Below are positions 89 through 14,140 of a DNA stretch of 64,000 nucleotides, in pieces. The notes below the pieces were generated by a model, which did no database searches, was not told the origin of the DNA, and saw nothing but the letters and a program-made list of their open reading frames with translations. Every line of letters starts with the position of its first letter. Within the stretch, counting starts at the first letter, position 1. The DNA comes from a virus, in IMG/VR virus record IMGVR_UViG_3300042197_003184, positions 1 to 64,000 of that record; one strand, 5' to 3'. Made by a program: the position numbers and the translations under genes.

Positions 89-100
89 GAGCGATTGGCT

Positions 101-607
101 TTATTCGGCCTCAATAGGCTCATCTTCAGTAAAAAACTCACCCATATTATATTCATCCCACAAACGCTTAGGAATCATATCGTGATGGGTATACTCCACA
201 TAATGATCGTCACCATCCTGCCACAATCCACAATACGCCATTCCCGGTTCCCAGTATGTAGCCTCAACCTTGAATCCCAACTCTACCAATCGTTCATACA
301 ATCCAAGAGGAGGACTCCATGCACTATCAAAAGTCATAGTCGCCTGATTGTCCACAACGGTAGGATTCAATCCGTGGGCCTCATTATTATCACTACCTAC
401 GTCCCATTTTGTATTCCAATTATTTACGCACCAATTATACCAATAATCCGGATGGGTGGTATCAGTTATCAACTCACCATTACCGTCCCTAGGTACCGGT
501 AAATAATGGTCACAAACCTTACCTTCCTTATAGGCATGGACAAACTCCATAACCTTAGCCCTATCTTCATGCTCAATAGTCAGATTATTTTGACACCAAT
601 TAGGCAT
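101..607 (-). CDS. YubB/DUF1281-like ferredoxin-fold phage protein
   Basis: MPNWCxN start, WYNWCVNNWNTKWD and FDSAWSPP motifs; start moved to 607 because a -10 box lies at 631-636. Confidence 0.75.
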   Translation of the reverse strand: MPNWCQNNLTIEHEDRAKVMEFVHAYKEGKVCDHYLPVPRDGNGELITDTTHPDYWYNWCVNNWNTKWDVGSDNNEAHGLNPTVVDNQATMTFDSAWSPPLGLYERLVELGFKVEATYWEPGMAYCGLWQDGDDHYVEYTHHDMIPKRLWDEYNMGEFFTEDEPIEAE

Positions 608-1193: not shown

Positions 1194-1199
1194 AGTGCT

Positions 1200-1227
1200 A
1201 TTCTATCACACTAAAATTTTTTGTCAA
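1200..1227 (-). promoter_or_regulatory. sigma70-type promoter, probably leaderless
   Basis: TTGACA-16-TAGAAT; ATG starts 7 nt after the -10 box. Confidence 0.75.
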
Positions 1228-1235
1228 CAGAACCA

Positions 1236-1274
1236 CGCTGACTATTGCCCATCACCGCAAATCCGTAGGATTAG
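1236..1274. repeat. GCTGACTAT plus GNA-triloop hairpin motif, copy 1
   Basis: cGCTGACTAT..AATCC-GTA-GGATTag; related copies at 5472 and 6327. Confidence 0.7.
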
Positions 1275-1450
1275 GAAAGACAACCAGACTCGCTACAGTC
1301 AATGACTACTTGACCCACCATGGTTCGCTCAAGGAAAATACGCTTTCCATATTCTTTCTCGGCTTTTTGCATAGCAGAGTATTCGGAATATGCTTTGACA
1401 TATCCAACGAGCCTACATTCTCTCCAGACTGCCCACAAGTATTCAGTCAT
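1271..1450 (-). CDS. hypothetical early protein
   Basis: ATG at 1450 overlaps the upstream stop (MTEYLWAVW...). Confidence 0.65.
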   Translation of the reverse strand: MTEYLWAVWRECRLVGYVKAYSEYSAMQKAEKEYGKRIFLERTMVGQVVIDCSESGCLS

Positions 1451-1694
1451 CCTCAGTCTCCGCAAACATATCATCCCATGCCACACTGTCAATACCGGTC
1501 ATGCACACTTCACGCTCATCGGCACTCAGGTACGGAAATGCTACTTGAACCAACTCCCCATTGAGCCAACGATTCATGTCCGCTAACTTGACCTGAACAG
1601 TAAACGGACGACCATCCAAACTTTCGCCCGTCATGGTCAAATCCTGACCGTCTTCACTAACCGTTTTCGTACAGTTCGCCAGAGCATATCTCAT
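1443..1694 (-). CDS. hypothetical early protein
   Basis: AGAGGAG SD, directly downstream of a promoter. Confidence 0.8.
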   Translation of the reverse strand: MRYALANCTKTVSEDGQDLTMTGESLDGRPFTVQVKLADMNRWLNGELVQVAFPYLSADEREVCMTGIDSVAWDDMFAETEDD

Positions 1695-1717
1695 AGTTTT
1701 TCTCCTCTTATCCCCTC

Positions 1718-1760
1718 ATTCTACTGCTCTATTATCGGCTTGTCAATAGAGAAAACTTTA
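1718..1760 (-). promoter_or_regulatory. composite sigma70/sigma28-like promoter
   Basis: TTGACA-17-TAGAAT overlapping TAAA-N17-GCCGATAA. Confidence 0.8.
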
Positions 1761-1777
1761 GCAGAAAAGATTTGTTG

Positions 1778-1855
1778 TAAAGTGTTGGTGGGTAAAGACT
1801 TACGTCAAACGGGGCCGCGAGCCCTCGCCCTAAGTGCTGCCGTAGCAACAACTTA
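1778..1855. repeat. Bipartite dyad element R2
   Basis: dyads at 1778-1802 and 1831-1855, 53-bp period. Confidence 0.95.
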
Positions 1856-1880
1856 GGGTTAGGGTTTCGAGAAAGAGAGA

Positions 1881-2294
1881 TCAGCAGAAGAAACTAGCCA
1901 CCTTCGGACTCTTGAACAGAGTACCAGCAAGGATAGGCTTTCGGCAATTCACTGCACGTTCACAGTAGAACTGTCGAATTTTACCATCCACAGTCTGACA
2001 CGTTACCAGATGATTAGTACGCTTGAACTGAGGATCGTTTCTACGATAGTTACTACGTCGGTTCATCAGTTTGATCCAAGTAGAATCCAGCGTAGCAACA
2101 GGCTCGATAACCTTAGCCAGATACCTTTCTGGCTCACCATTCAACGGTTGGAGATATTCAAAGTTGAAGACATCACCAACCTTAGCATTCGACAACGAAG
2201 TCCTAGAACCACCATAGATGGCATAGAACAGAAAGCCAGCAAAGCCAGCAGCAACAACAGCAAACAAACCACCAAGCACAATCCAATCAGTCAT
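1881..2294 (-). CDS. membrane-anchored hypothetical protein
   Basis: N-terminal hydrophobic helix; own promoter. Confidence 0.8.
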   Translation of the reverse strand: MTDWIVLGGLFAVVAAGFAGFLFYAIYGGSRTSLSNAKVGDVFNFEYLQPLNGEPERYLAKVIEPVATLDSTWIKLMNRRSNYRRNDPQFKRTNHLVTCQTVDGKIRQFYCERAVNCRKPILAGTLFKSPKVASFFC

Positions 2295-2332
2295 ACTAAA
2301 CCCTTTCGTTTGAAAATCCTAAATCTACAACC

Positions 2333-2360
2333 AGTCTACCACAATTTTTCTGTCTGTCAA
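2333..2360 (-). promoter_or_regulatory. sigma70-type promoter
   Basis: TTGACA-16-TAGACT. Confidence 0.7.
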
Positions 2361-2683
2361 GGGGAGATCACCATTCCGCTATAGAACGGATATTCGTTAC
2401 GACTACCATGGGCGGTAGGCACCTGCACATACCATTCATGATTACGCTGGCGAACCTTGAACGGGCTATACTGGTTGATACGATCCTTAGTGGTGGCGGT
2501 CTGCCATCCCCCATTGCTCAGTGTATACGTACCATCCTCGTGGATGCGAACCACACACGTACTATGCAGAGTGATTCCGACCGAGCCATCTGGCAGGATT
2601 TCCGCATAGGTATTGTTTCCAACCTTGCGACGAGTACGATAAGAAATACCCTTAACCATCTTAACCGCTTCAGCGTGTGTCAT
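2357..2683 (-). CDS. hypothetical early protein
   Basis: GWQTATTKDRIN motif; promoter upstream. Confidence 0.8.
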   Translation of the reverse strand: MTHAEAVKMVKGISYRTRRKVGNNTYAEILPDGSVGITLHSTCVVRIHEDGTYTLSNGGWQTATTKDRINQYSPFKVRQRNHEWYVQVPTAHGSRNEYPFYSGMVISP

Positions 2684-2707
2684 ATTCTTTTCCCTTTCGT
2701 TTCACTA

Positions 2708-2748
2708 AGTCTACATCTATTATCGGCACCTGTCAAGAGAAATCTTTA
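2708..2748 (-). promoter_or_regulatory. composite sigma70/sigma28-like promoter
   Basis: TTGACA-17-TAGACT overlapping TAAA-N17-GCCGATAA. Confidence 0.8.
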
Positions 2749-2767
2749 GAAAAATCTTTTTGTGTCG

Positions 2768-2845
2768 TAAAGTATTGAGGGATAAAGACTTACGTCAAAC
2801 GGGGCCGCGAGCCCTCACCCTAAGTGCTTTCGCACAAAGGGTTTA
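2768..2845. repeat. Bipartite dyad element R3
   Basis: dyads at 2768-2792 and 2821-2845; linker nearly identical to R2. Confidence 0.95.
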
Positions 2846-2854
2846 GGGCAAGAT

Positions 2855-3085
2855 TCACTCAAAGTCTACAAACACCACCTGAGCATAGCCGCGAGGCTTT
2901 AGGGTCAAACTATCTCCCCAGTTCTCAGTTTCGCAACGAACCCCGGTCAATCCGGCCAGTTCCTTGGCACGACGCACAATGCTACGTTGAGATTCTGGAT
3001 TCTTTGGCAGAAACTCATAACGATTCACCCAGCCATAATTAGCCTCACCACCAAACGTATCAGTCTGAGTCACAACACACTTCAT
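2855..3085 (-). CDS. hypothetical early protein
   Basis: TDTFGGEANYGWV motif; AAGGA SD. Confidence 0.8.
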   Translation of the reverse strand: MKCVVTQTDTFGGEANYGWVNRYEFLPKNPESQRSIVRRAKELAGLTGVRCETENWGDSLTLKPRGYAQVVFVDFE

Positions 3086-3086
3086 C

Positions 3087-3158
3087 TTACTTTCCTTTCT
3101 TTTCGTTCATTTGAACCACAATTCGAACAATTCGAGGAATACAATCTTCAGTCTTCAT
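3087..3158 (-). CDS. 23-aa micropeptide
   Basis: GAGGTG SD; MKTEDCIPRIVRIVVQMNEKKGK; coupled to neighbouring ORFs. Confidence 0.45.
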   Translation of the reverse strand: MKTEDCIPRIVRIVVQMNEKKGK

Positions 3159-3258
3159 CGTTCACCTCTTGGGTTGGAGCAAATACTAGGTCGCTTACCA
3201 GATACGATCCAATTATACCACAAACCACACCCAGAGTAAAGACCACATAAGGCTCCAT
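3148..3258 (-). CDS. 36-aa single-TM micropeptide
   Basis: AAGGAGG SD; MEPYVVFTLGVVCGIIGSYLVSDLVFAPTQEVNDED. Confidence 0.6.
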   Translation of the reverse strand: MEPYVVFTLGVVCGIIGSYLVSDLVFAPTQEVNDED

Positions 3259-3268
3259 TTTTCCCTCC

Positions 3269-3343
3269 TTAGATCAGAATAGCCATCACACACCCAGCCA
3301 CAAAACAAACCCCAAATAAAATCATCTCCTTAGGCCCAATCAT
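3269..3343 (-). CDS. 24-aa single-TM micropeptide
   Basis: AAGGAG SD; MIGPKEMILFGVCFVAGCVMAILI. Confidence 0.55.
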   Translation of the reverse strand: MIGPKEMILFGVCFVAGCVMAILI

Positions 3344-3424
3344 ATCCGATCTCCTTGTGGTTGTCAATCCCTATATCTATTATCGGCCAAATCCACCCAT
3401 AAGATCAAATAATTTTTCTTTCTG

Positions 3425-3502
3425 CAAAACGTTGTGAGATAAGGACTTAGGAACAATTTGTGCGGCCCGCCTCGCCCTAAGTTCTTTAGGGACAAGGCTT
3501 TA
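3425..3502. repeat. Bipartite dyad element R4
   Basis: dyads at 3425-3449 and 3478-3502. Confidence 0.9.
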
Positions 3503-3504
3503 GG

Positions 3505-3711
3505 TTAAGAAAGTACGTTGTCTGTACTAAATGAACACACGTTCAGTCCACTAGCCGCAGTGATAATATCAAACATTTTTCCGATATGCTCCTGTCGTTC
3601 CAGCGGTGTGCTCATATCATGCTCAGGAATATCTAGTACATACTCTTGAGTCAGGGGAATTTCTTCGAACTTTTCATTCTCTACTTTGATGTCATAGAAT
3701 CGGTGCAACAT
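3505..3711 (-). CDS. hypothetical early protein
   Basis: start overlaps upstream stop. Confidence 0.7.
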   Translation of the reverse strand: MLHRFYDIKVENEKFEEIPLTQEYVLDIPEHDMSTPLERQEHIGKMFDIITAASGLNVCSFSTDNVLS

Positions 3712-4109
3712 TAGAAACTCTCCGTAAAGTCAGCACTAATACCCATCTGTTCCCGAACGTCCGGGTCAGTAAGTGTATCCTCATCCATCATAAAGTCAAG
3801 GTCATCGAAAAAGATTTCCAACTCAGGCTCACCCTCATAAATCATGATTTTTGCAAAATCGTACAACATGAAATATGTCGTAGCCTGCACCCACGACTGA
3901 ACCACATTAGAATGAAGTTCGATTGTGTGCCGATTATTATAGACATACTCTATAGCGGAGCACTTAGTATTATCGCTCATCGTGCTCCATACCGGAATAC
4001 GATCATTGTACTTATTCAGTTCATACGACAATTCATTATGGTTCTTCCAGTCTTTATAATTCTCATACGTTGCTTCGATCATACCCTGTGCTATATTACG
4101 ATAGTACAT
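3711..4109 (-). CDS. hypothetical early protein
   Basis: coupled ORF with acidic C-terminus. Confidence 0.75.
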   Translation of the reverse strand: MYYRNIAQGMIEATYENYKDWKNHNELSYELNKYNDRIPVWSTMSDNTKCSAIEYVYNNRHTIELHSNVVQSWVQATTYFMLYDFAKIMIYEGEPELEIFFDDLDFMMDEDTLTDPDVREQMGISADFTESF

Positions 4110-4366
4110 CAGTAGTCCTCCCCATAGTAGCCGTAATCCTCATCGGTTCCAAATCCAGCATCTCGCATGGCACTGTCGAAATCCCCATCCATGCTATCAT
4201 CGACATCATTGTCCCAAACATCATCTTCCTCGTTTTCATCATAATCCTCATCCCAACTATCAAATTCATTCCAAGCGTTCTCGTCGTGGAAATCGTTGTA
4301 ATCGTCGTAGTTCATATCGTTTTCGTAAGAGTTATCGGGATCGAACAGGGGGTCAGGGTGACTCAT
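4109..4366 (-). CDS. extremely acidic protein (DNA-mimic candidate)
   Basis: 34 of 85 residues D/E, one R, no K; AAGGA SD. Confidence 0.75.
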   Translation of the reverse strand: MSHPDPLFDPDNSYENDMNYDDYNDFHDENAWNEFDSWDEDYDENEEDDVWDNDVDDSMDGDFDSAMRDAGFGTDEDYGYYGEDY

Positions 4367-4387
4367 GTGCTATTCCTTTCTCTAGTG

Positions 4388-4423
4388 TTATCGACATTCT
4401 ACACATAGAACTTGAGTTGTCAA
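4388..4423 (-). promoter_or_regulatory. composite sigma70/sigma28-like promoter
   Basis: TTGACA-16-TAGAAT plus TCAA-N16-GTCGATAA. Confidence 0.75.
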
Positions 4424-4453
4424 GCAAAAAAACACAAAAATAATTTCGTTTCG

Positions 4454-4531
4454 TAAACTGTTGATACGTAACGACTTACGACGAGCCGGGCCGCGGCGCC
4501 TCGCTCTAAGTTCTTTAGTAGCAAGGCTTTG
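4454..4531. repeat. Bipartite dyad element R5
   Basis: dyads at 4454-4478 and 4507-4531; 4454-4466 is an exact IHF consensus match on the minus strand. Confidence 0.95.
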
Positions 4532-4534
4532 CGT

Positions 4535-4780
4535 TCAATCTCCAAACGGGTTGTCGTCACCGTAACTTACGTATCCCACAGCCTCGTCCGCATGGAAGTC
4601 TTCGCGGTAATTATCTGACATAAAAACAACATCGGGTTCGATCTCGTCGCTCACCCCCACAACATCGGCCCAATCGTAGAAATCCGTTTGGATATTAGGA
4701 TCGTCAATCGGCTCGATCATGCCGTCGTCCACCATCTCGGCCAGAATCCGGTTAACATCATCAAAATCGTTCAGCATCAT
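4535..4780 (-). CDS. acidic hypothetical protein
   Basis: AAGGAG SD before ATG at 4780; D/E-rich. Confidence 0.7.
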   Translation of the reverse strand: MMLNDFDDVNRILAEMVDDGMIEPIDDPNIQTDFYDWADVVGVSDEIEPDVVFMSDNYREDFHADEAVGYVSYGDDNPFGD

Positions 4781-4842
4781 CTTCTCCTTGTGAAGTTCAC
4801 CAACGAACGCCATCATACTGGGAAAGTGATTCATGTCAACAC

Positions 4843-5106
4843 CTAAATTTGAGCCCAAGCCCTAAAACTTTGAGCAGAGGAACAGAACGCCATATCGTCC
4901 GAATCTCCACCGTAACCTTTGATTGTTTGAGCATACCAGATATATCCGCCCATCTCCCCCAACACTTCACGAAACCACCCGCTACCATCTTTTTTCGCGT
5001 AGGCTTCACCAACAAAAACCTTTGCTCTACTATTGAGCCAAATAATATCCCCGGTTTTCGTACCCAACATCGCCATAGCCTTTTGAACTTCCGATTTCGT
5101 AGACAT
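4843..5106 (-). CDS. hypothetical early protein
   Basis: AAGGAG SD and promoter upstream. Confidence 0.8.
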   Translation of the reverse strand: MSTKSEVQKAMAMLGTKTGDIIWLNSRAKVFVGEAYAKKDGSGWFREVLGEMGGYIWYAQTIKGYGGDSDDMAFCSSAQSFRAWAQI

Positions 5107-5118
5107 ACCTTGCTCCTT

Positions 5119-5155
5119 ATATCGTCATTCTACGCCTATAAAATCTACTTGTCAA
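5119..5155 (-). promoter_or_regulatory. composite sigma70/sigma28-like promoter
   Basis: TTGACA-17-TAGAAT followed by GACGATAT. Confidence 0.75.
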
Positions 5156-5318
5156 TAGTCTTTTGAAAAACAGTATCCAAATAAATCTCTCTATTCGTCA
5201 CAACCCACCCATATTCCGCTTCTGGAGTATAAACCCCAACATACAGTTTTCCACCATCCACACCCTCAAACCCCACACCATATCCTACCATACTAGCCAT
5301 CAAAAGTATACTGAACAT
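5145..5318 (-). CDS. 57-aa hypothetical protein (absent from ORF track)
   Basis: AAGGAG SD; MFSILLMASMVGYGVGFEG...IDK; preceded by TGAA-N16-GCCGATAT/TATAAT. Confidence 0.65.
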   Translation of the reverse strand: MFSILLMASMVGYGVGFEGVDGGKLYVGVYTPEAEYGWVVTNREIYLDTVFQKTIDK

Positions 5319-5384
5319 CCTTTTTCTCCTTAGATATTATATCGGCCAACCCCACCAATATCTTCACTTAAAAATCACAGAATA

Positions 5385-5462
5385 TAAACCCCTATCCTGC
5401 AACAACTTACGTTAAACGGGGCCGCGAGATTTTGACCTAAGTCCTTATGGGTCAATGACTTA
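5385..5462. repeat. Bipartite dyad element R6
   Basis: dyads at 5385-5409 and 5438-5462. Confidence 0.9.
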
Positions 5463-5471
5463 CGCTGACTA

Positions 5472-5502
5472 GCTGACTATCGCCATCAAGCCGGAGGCTT
5501 AG
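5472..5502. repeat. GCTGACTAT plus GNA-triloop hairpin motif, copy 2
   Basis: AAGCC-GGA-GGCTTag. Confidence 0.7.
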
Positions 5503-5514
5503 GTGAAACAATGT

Positions 5515-5901
5515 TCATCCATCACCCCTCCATGAGAAGGGGCTGATCTCCTCGCCATGAGACATGATAGCGGCATACTGTTCGGCCAGAGCCTCGACAC
5601 GCTCACGACTACCCCGTTTCCCGACCTTGATAATCATCGTATCCTCACCCCCCACAATTCGGGGATCGGCCTTCTCTGCCTTGCTCTTGCCCAATCGCCG
5701 CAATGCCTTGCGATTGAACTTCATAACCTTTTCGGTTACAAGGTATCTCTTATGGCCATCCACCCCATAGACATAGAAAGCGTCTTCGCCTTCTATCGCC
5801 CTATCGTCCGGGATCTCAACCAGATCGACCGTCGCCATACCAAGGAAACACATACGGGCTTGAATCTTGGCGTTTTCGATGATAGCGTACTTGGTTTTCA
5901 T
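5515..5901 (-). CDS. hypothetical early protein
   Basis: 128-aa ORF with purine-rich leader. Confidence 0.75.
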   Translation of the reverse strand: MKTKYAIIENAKIQARMCFLGMATVDLVEIPDDRAIEGEDAFYVYGVDGHKRYLVTEKVMKFNRKALRRLGKSKAEKADPRIVGGEDTMIIKVGKRGSRERVEALAEQYAAIMSHGEEISPFSWRGDG

Positions 5902-5948
5902 AGTTCTCTCTTTCTGTGTGTCAAAGGATACCGGTTTCGGTCAGACTA

Positions 5949-6137
5949 TCAACCCCCACAATCGAGGGAGGACAGATACTCTTGATTGTAGAAAACTACA
6001 TCCTCAAGATCCTCAATCTGACGATAGATTTGCGACCTAACGCTAGACGGCATACCATCATCCAGCATATCACGAAGATCGGTAATCTTCCGCATAGCCC
6101 AACTCGTTTCGTTCATTACTTTCTGTCGCTCGGTCAT
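5949..6137 (-). CDS. hypothetical early protein
   Basis: directly downstream of a promoter. Confidence 0.75.
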   Translation of the reverse strand: MTERQKVMNETSWAMRKITDLRDMLDDGMPSSVRSQIYRQIEDLEDVVFYNQEYLSSLDCGG

Positions 6138-6161
6138 CTTATTCTCTCTTTCTTTTCTCTT

Positions 6162-6189
6162 ATTCTACATATAGTTATCGTCGCGTCAA
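6162..6189 (-). promoter_or_regulatory. composite sigma70/sigma28-like promoter
   Basis: TTGACG-16-TAGAAT with GACGATAA in spacer. Confidence 0.75.
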
Positions 6190-6222
6190 TAAAAAAAAAT
6201 GAGGAAAAAGAAAAATATTTTT

Positions 6223-6238
6223 TGGTACAGTATTTGCT
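6223..6238 (+). promoter_or_regulatory. sigma54 (-24/-12) box
   Basis: TGGTACAGTATTTGCT, GG-N10-GC. Confidence 0.7.
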
Positions 6239-6248
6239 ATGATCGTTG

Positions 6249-6326
6249 TAAGTTGTTGATACATAAGCACTTACGTCAAATTCGCGGGCGCCTTGTTGTT
6301 GTAAGTCTTTATGTAGTAAGGGTTTA
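6249..6326. repeat. Bipartite dyad element R7
   Basis: dyads at 6249-6273 and 6302-6326; 6249-6261 is an exact IHF consensus match on the minus strand. Confidence 0.95.
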
Positions 6327-6363
6327 CGCTGACTATGCCCATATTGCCAAGCCGTAGGCTTAG
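6327..6363. repeat. GCTGACTAT plus GNA-triloop hairpin motif, copy 3
   Basis: AAGCC-GTA-GGCTTag. Confidence 0.7.
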
Positions 6364-6536
6364 CTGATACAGTGTTTCCACCTGAACAGGAGTTCAGTAG
6401 CAGCAGCCCGTATGCCTTCCATCAGCATTTCACGAATAGCCCCCTCCGAAGTGGGGAGTCTCCATTGTGCTTCGTGCAACCATAGTTGAATTGTGCTAGT
6501 GTTCATTTGTTCAAATGTTGGAGAGTAATAGTTCAT
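6360..6536 (-). CDS. hypothetical early protein
   Basis: likely start MNYYSPT after AAAGG. Confidence 0.65.
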   Translation of the reverse strand: MNYYSPTFEQMNTSTIQLWLHEAQWRLPTSEGAIREMLMEGIRAAATELLFRWKHCIS

Positions 6537-6546
6537 ACTTGACCTT

Positions 6547-6747
6547 TCAGTTAGCGGCTTCCATAACATCGAACGACACACACTTGTCAAGATAGATCGA
6601 CCTATACCCTTGCTCGCACTTGACAGTCAACAGGACACGCTCAGTCTCGTGACCTTCACCGGGAGGCATGGAGCGAACCTTGACCACTTCGCCATTCACG
6701 ATTTCGCCATTGTTGTATTCCGCAAACACAAAGTCACCAACATTCAT
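6547..6747 (-). CDS. small beta-barrel-like (SH3/KOW-like) hypothetical protein
   Basis: MNVGDFV...GEVVKV pattern; promoter upstream. Confidence 0.7.
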   Translation of the reverse strand: MNVGDFVFAEYNNGEIVNGEVVKVRSMPPGEGHETERVLLTVKCEQGYRSIYLDKCVSFDVMEAAN

Positions 6748-6772
6748 TTTCTTTCTCTCTTTCTTTGCTCTT

Positions 6773-6800
6773 ATTCTACATATTCATATCGTCAAGTCAA
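6773..6800 (-). promoter_or_regulatory. composite sigma70/sigma28-like promoter
   Basis: TTGACT-16-TAGAAT; TGAA-N16-GACGATAT. Confidence 0.75.
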
Positions 6801-6810
6801 CAAAAAAAAT

Positions 6811-7056
6811 TCAGTAGTACAACCAATCCTTCAGAATATTGCCATTAGCATCAACTTCGATATACTCGCCCTCATCCCCACAAGGGAAAAAGCCTTCAAT
6901 GTATCCGTTCAATCCCTTATGGGCAATGTCGTTTGCCAGAGCTTCGGCGAGCAACTCTCCACCGATGGTAGCAACCCCAACTAACGTATCGGGAGAAGTG
7001 CTATCCGCACCATACAGGAACTCGACCAATTCGTCTCGACTGTTTAGCGTAACCAT
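6811..7056 (-). CDS. acidic hypothetical protein
   Basis: AAGGA SD; promoter upstream. Confidence 0.75.
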   Translation of the reverse strand: MVTLNSRDELVEFLYGADSTSPDTLVGVATIGGELLAEALANDIAHKGLNGYIEGFFPCGDEGEYIEVDANGNILKDWLYY

Positions 7057-7079
7057 TTTTCTTATCCTTCTTTTCTCTT

Positions 7080-7107
7080 AGTCTACATAATATTATCGGC
7101 TTGTCAA
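7080..7107 (-). promoter_or_regulatory. composite sigma70/sigma28-like promoter
   Basis: TTGACA-16-TAGACT with GCCGATAA in spacer. Confidence 0.75.
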
Positions 7108-7139
7108 ACAAAAAAAAATAGAAAAAAGAAAAATATTTT

Positions 7140-7155
7140 TGGCATAGTATTTGCT
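7140..7155 (+). promoter_or_regulatory. sigma54 (-24/-12) box
   Basis: TGGCATAGTATTTGCT. Confidence 0.75.
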
Positions 7156-7165
7156 ATATGCGTCG

Positions 7166-7243
7166 TAAGTCGTTATATATCAAGTACTTACGTCAAATTC
7201 GCGGGCGCGATTTTTTTCTAACTCCTTATGCCACAAGGATTTA
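7166..7243. repeat. Bipartite dyad element R8
   Basis: dyads at 7166-7190 and 7219-7243; TATCAAGTACTTA (7178-7190) is an exact IHF consensus match. Confidence 0.95.
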
Positions 7244-7316
7244 CGTATAGTAGTAGTTTAGGGGGGTGCGTCTAACCCCCCGGTTTAGGTGGTACACCCC
7301 CACTCTAGGTAGTGTA

Positions 7317-7517
7317 CTAGCGTACCCTGTGCATGTATACCCTACTGATACCGCACGATGACACCCCCCAACCGGGGCAGTTCCAAATCCAATCCGGCAA
7401 CCCCTTGGATTGGGGGTGGAAGTATCCGTCAACGTGTAACGTATCGGGATGATTCGGAACCTTTTGAACGTTTAGATTGTATTTTTCCAACGCTACGATC
7501 ATTTGAGATACGCTCAT
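7317..7517 (-). CDS. hypothetical early protein
   Basis: AAGGA SD. Confidence 0.7.
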   Translation of the reverse strand: MSVSQMIVALEKYNLNVQKVPNHPDTLHVDGYFHPQSKGLPDWIWNCPGWGVSSCGISRVYMHRVR

Positions 7518-7574
7518 GATTTTCCTTTTTTTGATGAAAAACTTTTTTACCCTTGAATCGGCCGGTCTATCCCC

Positions 7575-7781
7575 TTACCGGGGGGTAGCCCCGTTTGCTT
7601 TTGCATACCGATACATGGCACGTTCATCTACCATAAACCTTCGAACACCGTTCAAATCCTTGAAATTCCAATGGTAGGTTAGAACGTCTGACTTGACCAT
7701 CCATCGGGCTTCAACGTCCGAAGTCTTTTTCAGCGTATAACCCATTTTATTCAACTCTTTTGCAATCGTTTGGCTGTTCAT
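7575..7781 (-). CDS. hypothetical early protein
   Basis: start MNSQTIAKE downstream of promoter 7807-7834. Confidence 0.7.
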   Translation of the reverse strand: MNSQTIAKELNKMGYTLKKTSDVEARWMVKSDVLTYHWNFKDLNGVRRFMVDERAMYRYAKANGATPR

Positions 7782-7806
7782 TTCTTTTCTCTCTTTCTTT
7801 TCACTC

Positions 7807-7846
7807 ATTCTACATACTATATCGTCAACGTCAAGAAAAAAAATTA
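7807..7846 (-). promoter_or_regulatory. composite sigma70/sigma28-like promoter
   Basis: TTGACG-16-TAGAAT; TAAT-N16-GACGATAT. Confidence 0.75.
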
Positions 7847-7866
7847 GGAAAAATCTTTTTCTTTTT

Positions 7867-7882
7867 TGGCATGGGTTTTGCT
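7867..7882 (+). promoter_or_regulatory. sigma54 (-24/-12) box
   Basis: TGGCATGGGTTTTGCT. Confidence 0.75.
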
Positions 7883-7917
7883 GCCCGAGGGGATTAGGTG
7901 AGACTTTCCTATTTTGC

Positions 7918-8121
7918 CTAAATCCTCCATTCGAGAAATTCGAGAGTAAACACCATTCCGGGATACTTATTTCCGATATACTTTTCCGCAGTAGACTTAC
8001 GATTATCGGTAGCCGAAACACACTGGACTACCTTACCATCGGAAATCACTTTCCAAATTCGACGACGACGAATCCGAGGAAGGCTACCGATGAAACTGTT
8101 TACGCTGATTGAAGGTTGCAT
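7918..8121 (-). CDS. basic hypothetical early protein
   Basis: Arg-rich 67-aa ORF after a promoter. Confidence 0.7.
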   Translation of the reverse strand: MQPSISVNSFIGSLPRIRRRRIWKVISDGKVVQCVSATDNRKSTAEKYIGNKYPGMVFTLEFLEWRI

Positions 8122-8152
8122 TTTCTTTTTCTCTCTTTCTTTCTTACTCTTT

Positions 8153-8188
8153 ATATCGACATTCTACATTCAAAACTTTACTTGTCAA
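8153..8188 (-). promoter_or_regulatory. composite sigma70/sigma28-like promoter
   Basis: TTGACA-16-TAGAAT; TAAAGTTT-N12-GTCGATAT. Confidence 0.8.
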
Positions 8189-8204
8189 GAAAAGAAAATC
8201 AGAA

Positions 8205-8414
8205 TCATGAAACCCCCATCCAATCGGCATTTTCGATACAATAATCGTAAAACATATCGTTCAACACTTCAACATAGTTGGAATCCGTCAACCGACGACG
8301 CTGCATGGTGGATTCACACTCTGCAAAAAACTTTCCGTTTTCTTCCACAATCTTGCAATTGTGCCATTCGTCGCCGAAAATTTCCACCATCGTCAAATGA
8401 TACGGGCTAACCAT
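8205..8414 (-). CDS. hypothetical early protein
   Basis: start MVSPYHLT downstream of promoter 8446-8473. Confidence 0.7.
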   Translation of the reverse strand: MVSPYHLTMVEIFGDEWHNCKIVEENGKFFAECESTMQRRRLTDSNYVEVLNDMFYDYCIENADWMGVS

Positions 8415-8445
8415 TTTTCTACTCTCTCTTTCTTTCTTTTCAATC

Positions 8446-8473
8446 ATTCTACATATAGTATCGTCGGTTGCAA
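8446..8473 (-). promoter_or_regulatory. composite sigma70/sigma28-like promoter
   Basis: TTGCAA-16-TAGAAT with GACGATAC in spacer. Confidence 0.7.
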
Positions 8474-8505
8474 GAAAAAAAATCAGAAAAAAAGAAAAAA
8501 TTTTT

Positions 8506-8521
8506 TGGCACAGGATTTGCT
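8506..8521 (+). promoter_or_regulatory. sigma54 (-24/-12) box
   Basis: TGGCACAGGATTTGCT, near-perfect RpoN consensus. Confidence 0.8.
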
Positions 8522-8527
8522 CAGGCT

Positions 8528-8552
8528 TTCCCCACCATAGGGGGGTTTTTTT
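8528..8552 (+). terminator. possible intrinsic terminator (plus strand)
   Basis: TTCCCC-ACCATA-GGGGGG followed by T7. Confidence 0.45.
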
Positions 8553-8656
8553 GTTTCTGAAATATCGTCCGAAAAAATGCCAGAAAGCCCGCGGTGGTGC
8601 ATACGCAATAGGCGCCCTCAGAAAATAATTGGCCAGTTTATTAGCCATTATCTTTA

Positions 8657-9079
8657 TTATGATTCCAGAACCATGCCGCTGCTGTCTGTTTTAAATCCAA
8701 AAGACTCATAGAATCCCACCAAATTCTTATTGCAATTCAACTTGATTTTGTAACAGTTGTTGCTCTTGGCCACATCGACACAATAATTTACTATTATTTT
8801 TCCATAGCCTTTACCTCTGCTGTTCTTACTAACCGCCACATCTTCTATATGACAGCATAATCTTTGGTATCTTAGTTTCTTTTCCATGATTATTGTTGCT
8901 GTTGATACTATCTTATTATTGTCTATACCCACAAACGTCAAAACATTGGACGGCCGAATACCCAGAGCCTCACTTATCTGCTCAACAGAACAAATATTAG
9001 ACCTTCCACTATTGAGTTCTGACACAACATCTAAATATTCTTCCAGATTATCGGAACATTCTAATAACTTAATAAACAT
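8657..9079 (-). CDS. GNAT acetyltransferase, glucosamine-6-phosphate N-acetyltransferase (GNA1)-like
   Basis: HIEDVAV..RGKGYGK acetyl-CoA motif; CYKIKLNC; FYESFGF. Confidence 0.8.
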   Translation of the reverse strand: MFIKLLECSDNLEEYLDVVSELNSGRSNICSVEQISEALGIRPSNVLTFVGIDNNKIVSTATIIMEKKLRYQRLCCHIEDVAVSKNSRGKGYGKIIVNYCVDVAKSNNCYKIKLNCNKNLVGFYESFGFKTDSSGMVLES

Positions 9080-9080
9080 T

Positions 9081-10688
9081 TTATCTCCTTACTATTCCAT
9101 TCCATCCTACGCTAGTTTGTCCAGAGATAGGATCGAATACTACTATTTGTATATTATTATTTCCTCTCTTAAGCCAATTACGATTCAAAGATATATTGAA
9201 TCCATGATACCCTGAACCAACTACAGGAACCAGGTTCTGTTTGTATTTATTAGCTAACTGCCCAGTTACCACCCTTCCGTTTATAACTACCCTCACTACC
9301 ACAGGCGAAGATCCCGATCTTTCGCTAAAGGCCCATCCGGACACCCTGTTTTTACTTAAAAACCCAACTCTTACCACAGGGGGTGCGATTTTGATAGTCG
9401 TAGTTCCTATGGTGTTCCACAACCCGCTCTGAAGGTCTCTGGCCTTAATTTCTATAATATGGTCGCCAATAACCAAACCTCCTAAATTAAACCTCCAAAC
9501 TCCGCCGACCCCAGTAACAAGATCCCCCTTTTCTGAGCCATTTATAATTAATTTTACGCTTATTGGACTATTACTAAAATCAGGATCATTAGCCCACCCA
9601 CCAACGGTTTTGAGATCTTGAAAAGTTATAGCTCCTATCGGAACGTGATTACTATCATAAGGTATATTCAAAACATTACAAACCGCTGCTGCTATATTCA
9701 GTTTGCCACCAGAAGCTACCTTACCAAATAATTCTGGTATTCTATCGACCGAAGAAAAAATAGCTTCTTTCACTTCTGATATAGATAGGCTCGGTTTAAT
9801 AGCTTTTAATAAAGCAACCGCCCCAGCAACCTGAGGCGCTGCCATACTAGTTCCGCTCATATATCCATAGTTGTTGTATGGGATCGTAGAGTATATTATG
9901 GATCCTGGAGCAGCTAAATCTACAGTAGTAGCCCCATAGTTAGAAAAACCCACCAAGCCATTAGAGTAACTACTCAAAGCTCCCACACTAATAATATTAG
10001 GACTATCATAACAGCTAGGATATCTTAAAGTAATATCATTATCGCTTCCATTATTACCCGCAGCTACGGTTAATATCACGCCATCATTATTTAATTGATT
10101 GATCGCTCCATACAACATATTACTAAAACCAGTCCCCCCACCCCAACTAGCATTTGCGACAACGACATTAACCCCATAAGTGTTTTTCATCATACTTATG
10201 TAACTCATAGCATTAGCAGCCGCCCCAGTATATCCCATCCCCTGTTCGTCTGTAAATTTTAATGTCATCAAACTAACATTCCAATTAATTCCCGCAACCC
10301 CCCAAGCATTGTTCCCTTCTGCTCCAATTACGCCAGCAATATGAGTGCCGTGTCCATATCTATCTTGAATATCATTATTGTTAGAATAAAAATTCCATCC
10401 ATGAATATCGTCTATATATCCATTGCCTTCATTGTCTATACCATCTCCGGCTATTTCTCCACTATTTGTCCATAGGTTACCTATCAGGTCCTGATGATTC
10501 AAATCTATCCCACTATCTATAATAGCGACAACAACATCTCTTGATCCCCTAGAATAATCCCAAGCCCCAAAAGCGCTCATATTACGAAGAGCCCATTGAT
10601 TATTAATTAGCGGATCATTAGGAGCTGTTGATAATAGTTTTTTATTTTCTAAATGTTCTATGCCTAACGAGAAAACTTTTTTGTTCAT
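9081..10688 (-). CDS. S8 subtilisin-family serine protease with planctomycete-type N-terminal signal
   Basis: IIDSG, HGTHIAG, AAGN, GTSMAAP; N-terminal LGIEHLENKKLLS. Confidence 0.93.
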   Translation of the reverse strand: MNKKVFSLGIEHLENKKLLSTAPNDPLINNQWALRNMSAFGAWDYSRGSRDVVVAIIDSGIDLNHQDLIGNLWTNSGEIAGDGIDNEGNGYIDDIHGWNFYSNNNDIQDRYGHGTHIAGVIGAEGNNAWGVAGINWNVSLMTLKFTDEQGMGYTGAAANAMSYISMMKNTYGVNVVVANASWGGGTGFSNMLYGAINQLNNDGVILTVAAGNNGSDNDITLRYPSCYDSPNIISVGALSSYSNGLVGFSNYGATTVDLAAPGSIIYSTIPYNNYGYMSGTSMAAPQVAGAVALLKAIKPSLSISEVKEAIFSSVDRIPELFGKVASGGKLNIAAAVCNVLNIPYDSNHVPIGAITFQDLKTVGGWANDPDFSNSPISVKLIINGSEKGDLVTGVGGVWRFNLGGLVIGDHIIEIKARDLQSGLWNTIGTTTIKIAPPVVRVGFLSKNRVSGWAFSERSGSSPVVVRVVINGRVVTGQLANKYKQNLVPVVGSGYHGFNISLNRNWLKRGNNNIQIVVFDPISGQTSVGWNGIVRR

Positions 10689-10773
10689 ATCAGCTTCCTT
10701 GCTTTGATTTTATGACAGAATTTCAGACAACACCCTGAAACTATCAGAAAAATCTTAGAAGTCAAGAAACATC

Positions 10774-12585
10774 TTATTCGACTGTTACGCTTTTAGCTAA
10801 ATTTCTAGGCTTATCAACATTCTTATTTCTTAATATTGCAGAATAATACGAGAATAGCTGCAAAGGAACCACAGAAACCAAAGGACTCAAAGCATCGCAT
10901 ACACTAGGTACTCTTATTTTATAATCGCCCAGATCTCCATAATTGGAATATATTCCAATAACTTTGCCATCTCTGGCTTGAATCTCTTTTATATTATTGA
11001 TTATTTTATTATGATTCTCATAGTTATTAGCAACCACAACAACAGGCATGTTTCTATCTATCAAAGCAATAGGACCATGTTTCATTTCAGCAGCAGGATA
11101 TCCTTCAGCATGAACATAGCTAATTTCTTTTAGTTTAAGAGCCCCCTCTAAAGCCACAGGAAAATTATATCCACGCCCCAAGAACAAACAATTCGTCATA
11201 GAAACAAACTCTTCAGCCACAAACTCCACAACATCACAACATCCCAGAGTGTCTTGTAAAATATTTGGCAAATCACGCAAATCGTCCATAATAGCTTTTC
11301 TATAATCGACAGATATAACCCCATCTATCTGCTCAATCCACAAAGCCAACAACAACAGACAAATCACCTGATTAGTAAAAGTCTTGGTACTAGCCACACC
11401 AACCTCCACCCCGCTTCTTAAATGAATTCCACAGTTGGTTAGCTTGCTCATACTAGAACTCACAACATTACATATACCAACAGTAATTGCTCCATAAATC
11501 TTAGCAATCTCCAAAGCCCCCAGAGTATCAGCAGTTTCCCCACTCTGACTAACCCCTATGACAATATCCCCCTCGTTGATCACAGGCTTTCGATATCTAA
11601 ACTCACTAGCATACTCCACACTCACTTTTATCTTACAAAGCTCTTCAATATAATACTTAGCCAGTAAAGAAGCGTGCCAAGAAGACCCACAACTTACTAT
11701 AGTAATATGATTCGCTTTTTTAAATATATTCTCATATCCTATCAGTCCCCCTAATTTAACCCTGTACCCATCTAGTCGTCCACTCAAACAATCATGTACC
11801 GTTTTGGGTTGTTCGTATATCTCCTTTAGCATATAACTATCAAAATCACCCTTATTGATCTTTAATACTTTACTATAGACCTTTTCAATTTCATAGTCTA
11901 TTTCTATTCCTTTGCTCATATCAAACACTTCCAGTCTGTCTTTCACCTCAACAACAACATTATCTTCCAGATAAACCACACCCACACTAGCTCTATCACC
12001 AAAAGCCCCCACATCACTAGCTACCATAGTCTCATTCACCCCAAACCCAACAACCAAAGGACTTCCTTTTCTAGCAGCTATCATTTGGCCAGTTTCCCCA
12101 TCTAATATTACTATAGCATAGGCCCCTATTACTTTTTCTAAAGACGATTTGATACCATCAATTAATGACCCTTTAATTTTGGTTTGATGATATATTAGGT
12201 ACAACAATACTTCAGAATCAGTATCACTAACAAAACTATATTCGGATAGCTCTTTCTTTAGATCTTCGTAATTTTCGATAATACCATTATGTGCTATTGC
12301 TAGTTTATTATCGTTCGTAACATGAGGATGAGAATTTCTTTTACAAGGCTTACCATGAGTGGCCCATCTGGTGTGTCCAATAGCGCTATAGGTTTCTATA
12401 TCAGGATTTTTGATTTTTTGCCTTAGATCTTCAATACTACCGGTTTGTTTGGTAGTAATCATATTATTCCCAACTATATAGCTAATTCCGGCACTATCAT
12501 AGCCCCTATACTCTAAACTTTGCAAACCATCTAAAATAAAAGACAAGCATTTGCTTTGTCCCTTATAGGCCACTATCCCACACAT
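10774..12585 (-). CDS. glmS: glutamine--fructose-6-phosphate aminotransferase
   Basis: MCGIV, LEYRGYDSAG, GHTRWATHG, SQSGETAD, PRNLAKSVTVE. Confidence 0.98.
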   Translation of the reverse strand: MCGIVAYKGQSKCLSFILDGLQSLEYRGYDSAGISYIVGNNMITTKQTGSIEDLRQKIKNPDIETYSAIGHTRWATHGKPCKRNSHPHVTNDNKLAIAHNGIIENYEDLKKELSEYSFVSDTDSEVLLYLIYHQTKIKGSLIDGIKSSLEKVIGAYAIVILDGETGQMIAARKGSPLVVGFGVNETMVASDVGAFGDRASVGVVYLEDNVVVEVKDRLEVFDMSKGIEIDYEIEKVYSKVLKINKGDFDSYMLKEIYEQPKTVHDCLSGRLDGYRVKLGGLIGYENIFKKANHITIVSCGSSWHASLLAKYYIEELCKIKVSVEYASEFRYRKPVINEGDIVIGVSQSGETADTLGALEIAKIYGAITVGICNVVSSSMSKLTNCGIHLRSGVEVGVASTKTFTNQVICLLLLALWIEQIDGVISVDYRKAIMDDLRDLPNILQDTLGCCDVVEFVAEEFVSMTNCLFLGRGYNFPVALEGALKLKEISYVHAEGYPAAEMKHGPIALIDRNMPVVVVANNYENHNKIINNIKEIQARDGKVIGIYSNYGDLGDYKIRVPSVCDALSPLVSVVPLQLFSYYSAILRNKNVDKPRNLAKSVTVE

Positions 12586-12621
12586 TATGCATTCCTATTT
12601 AATAAGAGTATTTTTATAAAA

Positions 12622-12655
12622 CAAAAATAAAGGGCAAACATTTCTGCTTGCCCCT
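12622..12655 (-). terminator. intrinsic terminator
   Basis: GGGGCAAGCA-GAAA-TGTTTGCCCT followed by T-rich run. Confidence 0.7.
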
Positions 12656-12661
12656 TAAATA

Positions 12662-12970
12662 TCAGTACCTATATACTGAAGCATATACTAGTGGACCAGT
12701 AGGAGGACCCACAGGAGCACTATTAATTATATATGATGGCCTATTACAAAATCCAAACCATGGTCTATACTGATAAACCACAGGATGATTAACAACACTA
12801 TAATGATGATAAATAACCACAGGATAGTGAGTTACCACAGGAACATAATGGGTAGTTGGCACATATACAACTTCTTGTTTAACAACAGGTACCCACACAC
12901 TATTATCTGCATAACTATAATTTGGCCATAAACATAATAACAGGCCAAAAATTACCGAAAAAGCTTTCAT
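12662..12970 (-). CDS. secreted Tyr/Val/Pro-rich protein
   Basis: signal peptide MKAFSVIFGLLLCLWPNYSYA; AAGGA SD. Confidence 0.7.
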   Translation of the reverse strand: MKAFSVIFGLLLCLWPNYSYADNSVWVPVVKQEVVYVPTTHYVPVVTHYPVVIYHHYSVVNHPVVYQYRPWFGFCNRPSYIINSAPVGPPTGPLVYASVYRY

Positions 12971-12983
12971 AAATAGTCCTTTA

Positions 12984-13220
12984 TTATTGTTGATTACTTT
13001 CCACACTAGATTCTGGATGACTAACAACTCTATTCTTAGGTCTTCGTCCTTTTGGCTTTCTAATTCCTAGTTTGCGTCTTTGACGTCTGATCATTGCTGT
13101 ACTAATAGTTTGGCCAGTCATTTGGCTTAATTTGGCACTTAGTTCCTCATCACTCAAAAGAACTTGATTATCCTCAATAAACTTTAATTCAGCATCAGTC
13201 CACTTTTTGTAATTAGCCAT
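12984..13220 (-). CDS. small HTH DNA-binding protein
   Basis: KWTDAE...SDEELSAKL...AMIRRQRRKLGI. Confidence 0.7.
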   Translation of the reverse strand: MANYKKWTDAELKFIEDNQVLLSDEELSAKLSQMTGQTISTAMIRRQRRKLGIRKPKGRRPKNRVVSHPESSVESNQQ

Positions 13221-13311
13221 AAATTTTGTCCTTTGGTGTAAATATTGACTAGTCTAAGAAACTCTTTACTATAATACAGTTTGACAAGTTTGATGCAAGG
13301 AGACATATCCG

Positions 13312-13503
13312 ATGAATCAAAATTTTAATATTGTAGATTCTATTTTGGAAGTTAAGGCTTGTGGATCAATTGCTGATATTTCGGCCGATTTATCCTTACA
13401 GTCCACCAAAACCATATCAGAGCTATTAGATGACCAAAAAGAACCAGAAACCAAAGAAGAAAATAGTCAAGAAGAAAACCAGGAAAACCTTAGATCAGAG
13501 TAA
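13312..13503 (+). CDS. hypothetical protein
   Basis: AAGGAG SD; overlaps the next gene. Confidence 0.55.
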   Translation: MNQNFNIVDSILEVKACGSIADISADLSLQSTKTISELLDDQKEPETKEENSQEENQENLRSE

Positions 13504-14140
13504 TTTATACGGTGTATCAGAACAGGAATTTTTAAATGTTTTGGATAATATTAGCAAAAGATTAGCTAATCGTTTTAAATTTGGATACCACGATTTTGAT
13601 GATATGAAACAACAGGCCGCTATTTTTGCTCTGGAAGGACTAGAAAAATACGATCACAAAAGACCATTAGAAAATTTCTTATGGACCCACGTTCGTAATC
13701 GACTATTTAATTACAAAAGAAACAATTATCAAAGACCAGACAAGCCTTGTTTAACTTGTCCGTTTTTTGACAAAGGATATCGCTGTTCCAACAATCAGTG
13801 TTCCAAATTTACAGACAAACAACAGTGCGAACTATACGCATCGTGGGCTCAACGTAACGACTCTAAAAAGAATATCATGCAGCCTACTCATATAGGTGAT
13901 CAGGAGTATATTCATAATTCTTTGGTTAAAGACGGGTTTAGTAATGCTATACAAAACCAAGAGATTATTAATTTTTTAGACCAACACATTCAAGCAGAAT
14001 ACAGAGAAGCTTATCTCAAACTAAAACATGGCTCTAAAATACCCAAGCAGCAATTACAAAAATTACAAAATCATATTGCAGAATTATTAAGGAATAACGA
14101 ATGGGATCCGGAAAATTATCCAAAAAACGAGGACAATTAG
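13430..14140 (+). CDS. phage sigma70-family factor with Cys-rich insert
   Basis: region-2-like DDMKQQAAIFALEGLEKYD..LENFLWTHVRNRLFNYKR; CLTC..C..C..C insert. Confidence 0.7.
   Translation: MTKKNQKPKKKIVKKKTRKTLDQSNLYGVSEQEFLNVLDNISKRLANRFKFGYHDFDDMKQQAAIFALEGLEKYDHKRPLENFLWTHVRNRLFNYKRNNYQRPDKPCLTCPFFDKGYRCSNNQCSKFTDKQQCELYASWAQRNDSKKNIMQPTHIGDQEYIHNSLVKDGFSNAIQNQEIINFLDQHIQAEYREAYLKLKHGSKIPKQQLQKLQNHIAELLRNNEWDPENYPKNEDN

Follow-up and report, generated by a model that had tools for sequence, protein, structure and literature searches.

The best-supported reading of four short bipartite boxes in the early-type region of the viral contig IMGVR_UViG_3300042197_003184 is that they are recognition sites of the RpoN (sigma54) type, kept under selection in a large clade of related phages. 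The DNA analysed here, which we call the window, is the first 64 kb (64,000 nucleotides) of this 139,964-bp IMG/VR contig, whose estimated completeness is 94%. The box, TGGYANNNNNNTTGCT (TGGYA-N6-TTGCT), has exactly four matches in the window, all on the plus strand, where shuffling predicts 0.31; none of 100 shuffles reached four. These are the same four copies that a first-pass annotation of the window had picked out. The whole genome holds one extra copy, at 64594 on the minus strand, within a long open reading frame (ORF).

Do the boxes have the properties of sigma54 sites? Bacterial sigma54 promoters follow the extended consensus YTGGCACGrNNNTTGCW. All four boxes show the GG-N10-GC spacing (-24/-12) of such promoters; measured against the longer form TTGGCAC-N4-TTTGCT, boxes 1 to 4 have 1, 1, 1 and 0 mismatches. 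For comparison we fetched 80 related viral loci via their terminase (1.24 Mb). The box pattern is abundant upstream of terminase in these loci, and TGGYA-N(k)-TTGC occurs 172 times at k = 6 against 6 to 30 times at each other k from 2 to 11. The clade consensus from 123 non-redundant copies, TT-TGGCAC-RRNAT-TTGCT-RT (TTTGGCAC-RRNAT-TTGCT), agrees with the extended sigma54 consensus; its central positions are variable, and information falls to about zero directly outside it.

Near-miss copies in the zones where boxes cluster are equally informative about which positions matter. G-25, G-24, A-22, G-13 and C-12 are never altered there, whereas C-21 (33 cases), T-16, T-27 and T-11 are altered freely; background near-misses are spread evenly. 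This profile is like the tolerance generally known for RpoN, the comparison being one of pattern and not with a curated matrix. The cluster zones, 140 kb in total, contain 49 perfect and 56 one-mismatch copies, the remaining 1.1 Mb only 3 and 5; since the zones were defined by the presence of boxes this enrichment is partly circular, while the absence of GG/GC variants is not. In five complete relatives (150-230 kb) the boxes are restricted to a single 1- to 4-kb cluster in the early region. The strict spacing, together with a conserved GG and GC amid varying flanks and spacer, argues that the box is not a by-product of repeated DNA, and its maintenance across the clade argues for a real control element. 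Conservation of GG-N10-GC in related phages, which the first-pass annotation had proposed as a check on its sigma54 reading, thus holds. RNA polymerase carrying sigma54 (E-sigma54) probably binds the boxes in some role.

When the four window modules are aligned with six from three relatives (L019, L021 and L077), a conserved unit of about 95 bp emerges, from the -10 hexamer of a sigma70 promoter to the sigma54 -12, beyond which conservation collapses. In L071, the orthologue of gene 7575-7781 has kept an antisense box upstream of its promoter despite a different spacer architecture. The box could be retained as part of a short junction used to shuffle early-gene cassettes, with no binding function of its own: the ~95-bp module is conserved as a unit in paralogous and orthologous cassettes alike, relatives carry the early genes in mosaic, reshuffled order at 68-85% nucleotide identity, and in T4-type phages shuffling of this kind is mediated by PeSL cassettes (PMC2839356). 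However, the five spacer positions vary freely and GG/GC never do, which points to selection on a bipartite recognition site and not on a stretch of identity for recombination, and the box is found in several unrelated module contexts and in both orientations. We consider a pure recombination joint very improbable.

In some relatives the box is placed as a promoter would be. L019, L026, L047 (two copies), L050 and L058 have a sense box followed by CTTATA-N5-TATAAG, a purine-rich leader and an ATG about 35 nt downstream; no sigma70 hexamers accompany these boxes, and different small genes follow in different phages. Upstream of each gene-heading box are a conserved segment ATGTCATAGCGTTTTTCCCGAGGAAAAC and, 60-150 bp away, two or three near-palindromic 17-mers TGTAGCATTTTGCTACA. 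The 17-mer clusters (L050 4377-4441; also in L019, L026, L047, L058 and L078) look like binding sites for an enhancer-binding protein. In L050 their distances to one box are 82, 103 and 146 bp, and those to its divergent partner 60, 103 and 124 bp; 17-mers between divergent boxes are, as far as the sequence can tell, the classical layout of divergent sigma54 promoters with common activator sites. As in the window, one box of each divergent pair in these relatives faces a dyad element and, behind it, the next early gene in antisense. Along with the strict spacing and the RpoN-like tolerance, the gene-heading copies and their enhancer-like palindromes bear out the -24/-12 identity that the first-pass annotation had assigned.

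Two further features accompany boxes in relatives. Small Cys-rich proteins of zinc-ribbon type (..SDCCG..C-x2-CGEHC..) are headed by sigma54 boxes in L050 (about 3915-4045), L026 (about 1540) and L047 (about 2480), all on the minus strand. In 14 relatives (for example at 1052 and 2333 in L016 and at 804 and 2577 in L071) antisense boxes are preceded, at a distance of about 40 bp, by a different palindrome, TGTCAA-N6-TTGACA, with more -35-like repeats beside it.

The window boxes are arranged differently from the gene-heading ones. The early-type region (1-8550) carries about 25 small genes on the minus strand, without known relatives. Some 17 strong promoters of the sigma70 type (TTGACN-16/17-TAGAAT), which have A/T-rich tracts upstream and purine-rich leaders, serve these genes; each gene unit is followed by a double-dyad 'R' element, of which eight copies lie within 11-7243. 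All four boxes can be classed as 'divergent': each shares an A/T tract with a strong leftward sigma70 promoter and points rightwards (Table 1). The first-pass annotation had placed the GG 34-35 bp from the divergent -35 box across an A-tract. We measured 35, 34, 34 and 34 bp to the edge of the -35 (hexamers at 6189, 7107, 7834 and 8473), and the gap of 31-33 bp consists of an A-run and then a T-run. On the minus strand the gap resembles the distal consensus of UP elements (AAAAAATATTTTT), which the tract beside box 1 matches. Antisense boxes of relatives stand 32-36, 53-59, 65 or 69-71 bp from the divergent -35. Rightward from each window box, a transcript would meet only the 3' flank, with its dyad element or hairpin, and then run antisense through the early unit next to it. 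All genes around the boxes lie on the opposite strand, and no plausible plus-strand ORF follows any of them in the window, as the first-pass annotation had said; a terminator scan also recovered the plus-strand hairpin that it had noticed after box 4.

Table 1. Boxes and flanking elements in the early-type region of the window. Predicted starts are C(-12) plus 12.
Feature	Position	Strand	Sequence and remarks
Sigma54-type box 1	6223..6238	+	TGGTACAGTATTTGCT; GG 6224-5, GC 6236-7; predicted +1 at 6249
Sigma54-type box 2	7140..7155	+	TGGCATAGTATTTGCT; predicted +1 at 7166
Sigma54-type box 3	7867..7882	+	TGGCATGGGTTTTGCT; predicted +1 at 7893, within the 5' arm of inverted repeat 7888-7928
Sigma54-type box 4	8506..8521	+	TGGCACAGGATTTGCT; TTGGCAC-N4-TTTGCT without mismatch; predicted +1 at 8532, third base of arm CCCCACC
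A-run/T-run tract common to box 1 and divergent sigma70 promoter	6190..6222		AAAAAAT-N16-ATTTTTT
A/T tract, box 2 to divergent sigma70 promoter	7108..7139		From sequence and module alignment
A/T tract, box 3 to divergent sigma70 promoter	7835..7866		From sequence and module alignment
A/T tract, box 4 to divergent sigma70 promoter	8474..8505		From sequence and module alignment
Sigma70 early promoter, leftward	6162..6189	-	TTGACG-16-TAGAAT; drives 62-aa gene 5949-6137
Sigma70 early promoter, leftward	7080..7107	-	TTGACA-16-TAGACT; drives 81-aa gene 6811-7056; GCCGATAA in spacer
Sigma70 early promoter, leftward	7807..7834	-	TTGACG-16-TAGAAT; drives genes 7575-7781 and 7317-7517
Sigma70 early promoter, leftward	8446..8473	-	TTGCAA-16-TAGAAT; drives 69-aa gene 8205-8414
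Double-dyad element R7	6249..6326		GTAAGT..ACTTAC, GC-rich linker, second dyad; directly downstream of box 1
Double-dyad element R8	7164..7243		Arms 7164-7170 / 7186-7192; directly downstream of box 2
Inverted repeat	7888..7928		GAGGGGATTAGG-N17-CCTAAATCCTCC, after box 3; overlaps stop codon of gene 7918-8121 (-)
Terminator-like hairpin	8527..8552	+	Stem 8527-8545, CCCCACC-ATA-GGGGGG, then T7; right edge of early region
Second terminator-like site	7579..7603	+	CGGGGGGTAGCCCCG then TTTGCTTTTG

What could such boxes do? Of the three roles that the first-pass annotation had offered, all compatible with the sequence, namely antisense shut-off of early genes, a roadblock to read-through and a decoy for RpoN, we prefer the first. 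From the observed motif, geometry, conservation, tolerance and promoter-like use in relatives, we infer that RpoN would bind and fire at these sites and that the resulting antisense RNAs would have an effect. The explanation we favour, at a probability of roughly 0.4, is that the boxes are activator-dependent promoters of host E-sigma54 making antisense RNAs that converge with the early units and damp early expression. The boxes would be an optional module of mobile regulatory cassettes that separate the small early genes of the clade. Sigma54 requires an ATP-driven activator, and E-sigma54 would wait in a closed complex until an enhancer-type ATPase opens it; as the phage encodes none, this ATPase would be the host's. 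Once opened, the polymerase would make non-coding plus-strand RNAs running convergently into the sigma70-driven early units, and these would lower early-gene expression, either through transcriptional interference or because sense and antisense RNAs pair. The RNAs would end at two terminator-like sites, 7579-7603 for boxes 1 and 2 and the border of the early region. The border hairpin, which is universal in the relatives aligned (see below), fits a need to stop plus-strand transcription from leaving the early region.

Several observations weigh against this explanation. We found no RpoN DNA-binding domain in the phage, no RpoN encoded in the five complete relatives and no sigma54-activator AAA+ protein (PF00158) in the phage or these relatives, where the weak PF00158 matches are a RuvB-like protein. 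The enhancer-like palindromes of relatives (GCATTTTGC cores and TGTCAA-N6-TTGACA) are absent from the window, as is the small gene associated with the 17-mers TGTAGCATTTTGCTACA; the 17-mers themselves are absent from this genome. Terminase, GlmS, DnaE and tRNA signals assign no host, rpoN-bearing or otherwise: cultured relatives sought by tblastn with the terminase reach only 24% identity at best (Bacillus phages), GlmS against one genome per species reaches 43% (a Clostridia metagenome-assembled genome, with mixed phyla below), the N-terminal part of DnaE 35% (gut phage fragments), and a tRNA scan gave none in the window and one doubtful candidate in the whole genome. Shine-Dalgarno sequences are present at about half of the large genes, which is not diagnostic of the host.

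Other points on the same side come from the sites themselves. The same-strand downstream gene expected of a sigma54 promoter is missing at the four window boxes, and box 4 has a terminator-like hairpin directly downstream. Plus-strand RNAs downstream of the boxes fold no better than shuffles, for which reason structured antisense RNAs were rejected. The plus-strand site at 7579 is not conserved in the L071 orthologue and was therefore discarded as conserved evidence, and the border terminator is also present in box-less relatives and thus independent of the boxes. Copies per phage range from 0 to 11, an odd range for a simple promoter; phages such as L010, L057 and L061 have no box despite many sigma70 early promoters (10-11 in some), which makes the element dispensable. 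Among the clustered boxes of relatives, 75 are antisense and 41 sense to early genes, compared with 23 antisense and 199 sense sigma70-like promoters. Lastly, some boxes stand head-to-head at a distance of 3-4 bp, others back-to-back with about 17 bp separating them, or in tandem at 26, 38 and 43 bp; two E-sigma54 could not sit together on both members of a head-to-head pair or of a 26-bp tandem.

Is firing needed at all? E-sigma54 or free sigma54 may dock silently, the transcript being irrelevant, and the box may act as an insulator, a competitor of the UP element or a sponge. As an insulator, a closed complex of either orientation would lie beside the UP element of a sigma70 early promoter; as a sponge, many copies on replicating phage DNA would soak up a possibly scarce host sigma54 and blunt sigma54-dependent host responses. 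This would account for boxes in both orientations upstream of sigma70 promoters, for head-to-head, back-to-back and 26-bp tandem copies that leave no space for initiation by both, and for the hairpin or inverted repeat, in several cases with a T-run, that stands 7-10 nt after box 4 and after 12 sense-strand boxes in relatives. The footprint of the sigma54 closed complex extends from about -34 to -5, and the box abuts the A/T tract that would serve as sigma70 UP element, so that two polymerases would be expected to compete. In Yersinia, some RpoN sites are known to be silent or to act negatively (PMC7657599). However, the gene-heading boxes with their enhancer-like palindromes suggest that at least some copies are working promoters, a sponge would have no need of tight, discrete spacing to neighbouring elements, and the copy number is low, with none in some relatives. 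Silent docking seems to us unlikely.

The same geometry can be read in yet another way, the box being an operator for a phage or host protein other than sigma54 that regulates the adjacent sigma70 early promoters, and its likeness to RpoN sites a coincidence or mimicry. Orientation independence and positions fixed relative to sigma70 promoters are in line with this, and the palindromic head-to-head pairs, TGGCAC-N5-TTGCT-N3-TGCAA-N5-GTGCCA with 3-4 bp between the boxes, resemble dimer operators. The two half-sites also form an 11-bp direct repeat, a type bound by tandem winged-helix proteins, and the roughly 20 unannotated small early proteins could include such a factor. Against this, the match to RpoN extends to the secondary positions Y-27, R-20, R-19, T-15, T-14 and W-11, and the never-substituted set is exactly GG/GC plus A-22. 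Copies also sit as promoters before genes, with the same leader length as sigma70 promoters, and the tandem copies, spaced at 26, 38 and 43 bp, are not in helical phase. The only early gene families whose presence follows that of the boxes are core early genes, whose apparent absence elsewhere reflects incomplete flanks. We judge an operator of this kind to be rather improbable.

If the boxes do act as E-sigma54 promoters, their relation to the next inverted repeat deserves attention. The predicted starts of all four fall at or inside its 5' arm. The first-pass annotation had put the starts of boxes 1 and 2 on the first base of R7 and R8; this is right for R7 (first base of GTAAGT), and at R8 the start is 2 nt off, on the third base of CGTAAGT. 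Box-to-arm spacing is 7-10 nt in 18 of 18 copies of two classes. Sense boxes have CCTTAC-N6-GTAAGG after 7-9 nt (12/12), then a T-rich run and a sigma70 -35 at 35-38 nt; border boxes (box 4 and five relatives) have CCCCACC-N3-GGGGGG and a T-run after 8-10 nt (6/6). An RNA starting at a predicted +1 inside the 5' arm would lose much of the hairpin: at box 4 the predicted energy is -8.5 kcal/mol for the full and -3.2 for the shortened form, and at the L050 copy at 4905 it is -7.2 and -4.1, respectively. These models suggest that RpoN-initiated RNAs may escape hairpins that stop RNAs coming from upstream. A sigma54 promoter nested in the foot of a hairpin or terminator, with its start inside the 5' arm, such that upstream RNAs are stopped and RpoN-initiated ones pass, would be a new phage control device; we regard it as doubtful. 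If true, this device and the back-to-back sigma70 promoters would constitute an RpoN-gated bidirectional switch of early transcription across a large uncultured phage clade, driven by a host stress- or motility-linked activator and not by a phage factor.

The R dyads have arms of 6-7 bp, loops of 13-15 nt and no T-run on the sense strand, and minus-strand terminator-like sites are few in 1-8600. R7 and R8 fold no better than shuffles (z = -1.6 and 0.08, respectively). With folds this weak and loops this long, the dyads look more like sites for a protein than like RNA hairpins. Their half-site, GTAAG/CTTAC, is everted in the R dyads and inverted (CCTTAC-N6-GTAAGG) beside sigma70 promoters in relatives. 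CTGCCA-TTTT-GGCAG takes the place of all the dyads in the L021/L077/L080 subclade.

At the right border of the early region, the GGGGG + T6-7 signal of the plus-strand hairpin does not vary in any of the 19 relatives aligned, box-less ones among them. It opens a conserved non-coding block (8540-8655 in the window, found in at least 19 relatives) consisting of GGGGG, T6-7, about 30 variable nucleotides and then GGGTGGTCCAAAAAYARTAGGCACC..TAATTGGCCAGTTTATTAGCCA. Despite the strong conservation, no covarying RNA structure was detected on either strand after the border signal, either in the conserved block of about 75 nt or in the 120 nt after box 4 (17 relatives). The sole structure in the block is a small hairpin, UGGCUA..UGGCCA, which to judge by its G-U pairs belongs to the minus strand.

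The first-pass annotation had also proposed that the region is wired to the flagellar regulatory set of the host, through sigma28 and IHF-like sites in addition to the boxes. We found no support for this view. Sigma28-like boxes GCCGATAA (or GTCGATAT) with TAAAG upstream do occur in or just after sigma70 promoters, at 1718-1746, 2708-2736 and 7080-7107 and in early promoters of relatives. Their TAAAGTTT-to-GCCGATAA gap measures 12-13 nt and so exceeds the 11 of the E. coli sigma28 consensus by 1-2 bp, and no convincing IHF site was seen.

To the right of the early region, a leftward block with GNAT, S8 peptidase and GlmS genes is followed by rightward genes, starting with a sigma70-family sigma factor (13430-14140, plus strand; Pfam Sigma70_r2, E=3.6e-5; PHROG 1740) and continuing with terminase, portal and a 5,733-aa tape measure. 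The sigma factor presumably serves late transcription. We rejected the idea that box 4 drives this rightward operon, since in this genome as in L077 leftward genes and additional terminators lie in between. Terminase relatives in IMG/VR number more than 600 at about 80% amino-acid identity, on contigs of up to 240 kb; the relatives' genomes measure 140-230 kb. The early region has no megablast match among cultured phages, and 20 early proteins searched against Pfam, PHROGs and PDB sequences gave nothing besides one match, that of a 108-aa protein (2357-2683, minus strand) to Kyano_Gp96 (E=4.7e-9), a Pfam family from T4-like cyanophages. No known RNA family was found in 1-14000 at E<=1. Outside the window, at 88380-92736 on the minus strand, DNA polymerase III alpha is divided between a first ORF of 622 aa, with the PHP and NTPase domains, and a second of 541 aa, with finger, HHH and OB; a 231-aa ORF separates the two. 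DnaB, a primase and a class II ribonucleotide reductase are encoded nearby.

How do these boxes compare with known systems? They share with bacterial -24/-12 promoters the GG-N10-GC core, the extended consensus TGGCAC-N5-TTGCW and the tolerance profile; copies in relatives also share with divergent bacterial sigma54 promoters the palindromic repeats 60-150 bp upstream, common to both boxes, and an A/T-rich, probably bent, upstream tract. They differ in that the window has neither upstream palindromes nor a downstream gene and its boxes are antisense, and in the overlapping head-to-head and tandem copies of relatives. Among phages there is a precedent: PMC5053324, citing Ceyssens et al. 2008, describes the development of Pseudomonas phage YuA as strictly sigma54-dependent, and ONT-cappable-seq detected one sigma54-like promoter of YuA again (bioRxiv 10.1101/2023.10.13.562163). 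Like the phage studied here, YuA is a tailed lytic phage with a host sigma54-type promoter beside sigma70-type ones. However, the two phages show no sequence relationship, and YuA has one mapped sigma54-like promoter serving its expression, whereas here four boxes (0-11 in relatives) cluster in the early region, mostly antisense and in repeated cassettes.

The PeSL cassettes of T4-type phages are closer in organization: small ORFan early genes are flanked by a strong sigma70 promoter and a stem-loop or dyad, and the cassettes are reshuffled (PMC2839356). The early region resembles them in that its small ORFan genes are set apart by about 17 sigma70 promoters and 8 dyad elements, gene order is mosaic and modules align as units. 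It departs from them in that the stem-loop is not an effective sense-strand intrinsic terminator (long loops, no T-run); PeSLs have no sigma54 element, whereas here an optional, oppositely oriented -24/-12 box is present, with a double dyad instead of a simple terminator. Intragenic, antisense and 'silent' RpoN sites have been mapped by chromatin immunoprecipitation in the enterobacteria Yersinia pseudotuberculosis (PMC7657599) and Salmonella (PMC3844500). As here, consensus sites occur in non-productive or antisense positions, some acting negatively on neighbouring genes; in contrast, those sites are scattered singly in chromosomes and do not form a conserved, phased cluster in a virus. Our literature searches turned up no account of sigma54 boxes that are clustered, mostly antisense and part of the early-gene cassettes of phages.

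To our knowledge, sigma54 is the sole bacterial sigma factor that gives all-or-none, signal-gated transcription, and we know of almost no reports of its use in phages, YuA being the exception cited. A large uncultured clade nevertheless keeps textbook RpoN sites in its early control region, most of them facing against the genes. If the boxes fire, they would provide a host-signal-dependent antisense brake on early genes, through which a lytic phage reads the physiological state of its host; if they only bind, they would be the first viral RpoN insulators or sponges. In either case they would add a new layer to the temporal control of phage development, and the sites would act as a simple sequence marker predicting hosts with rpoN.

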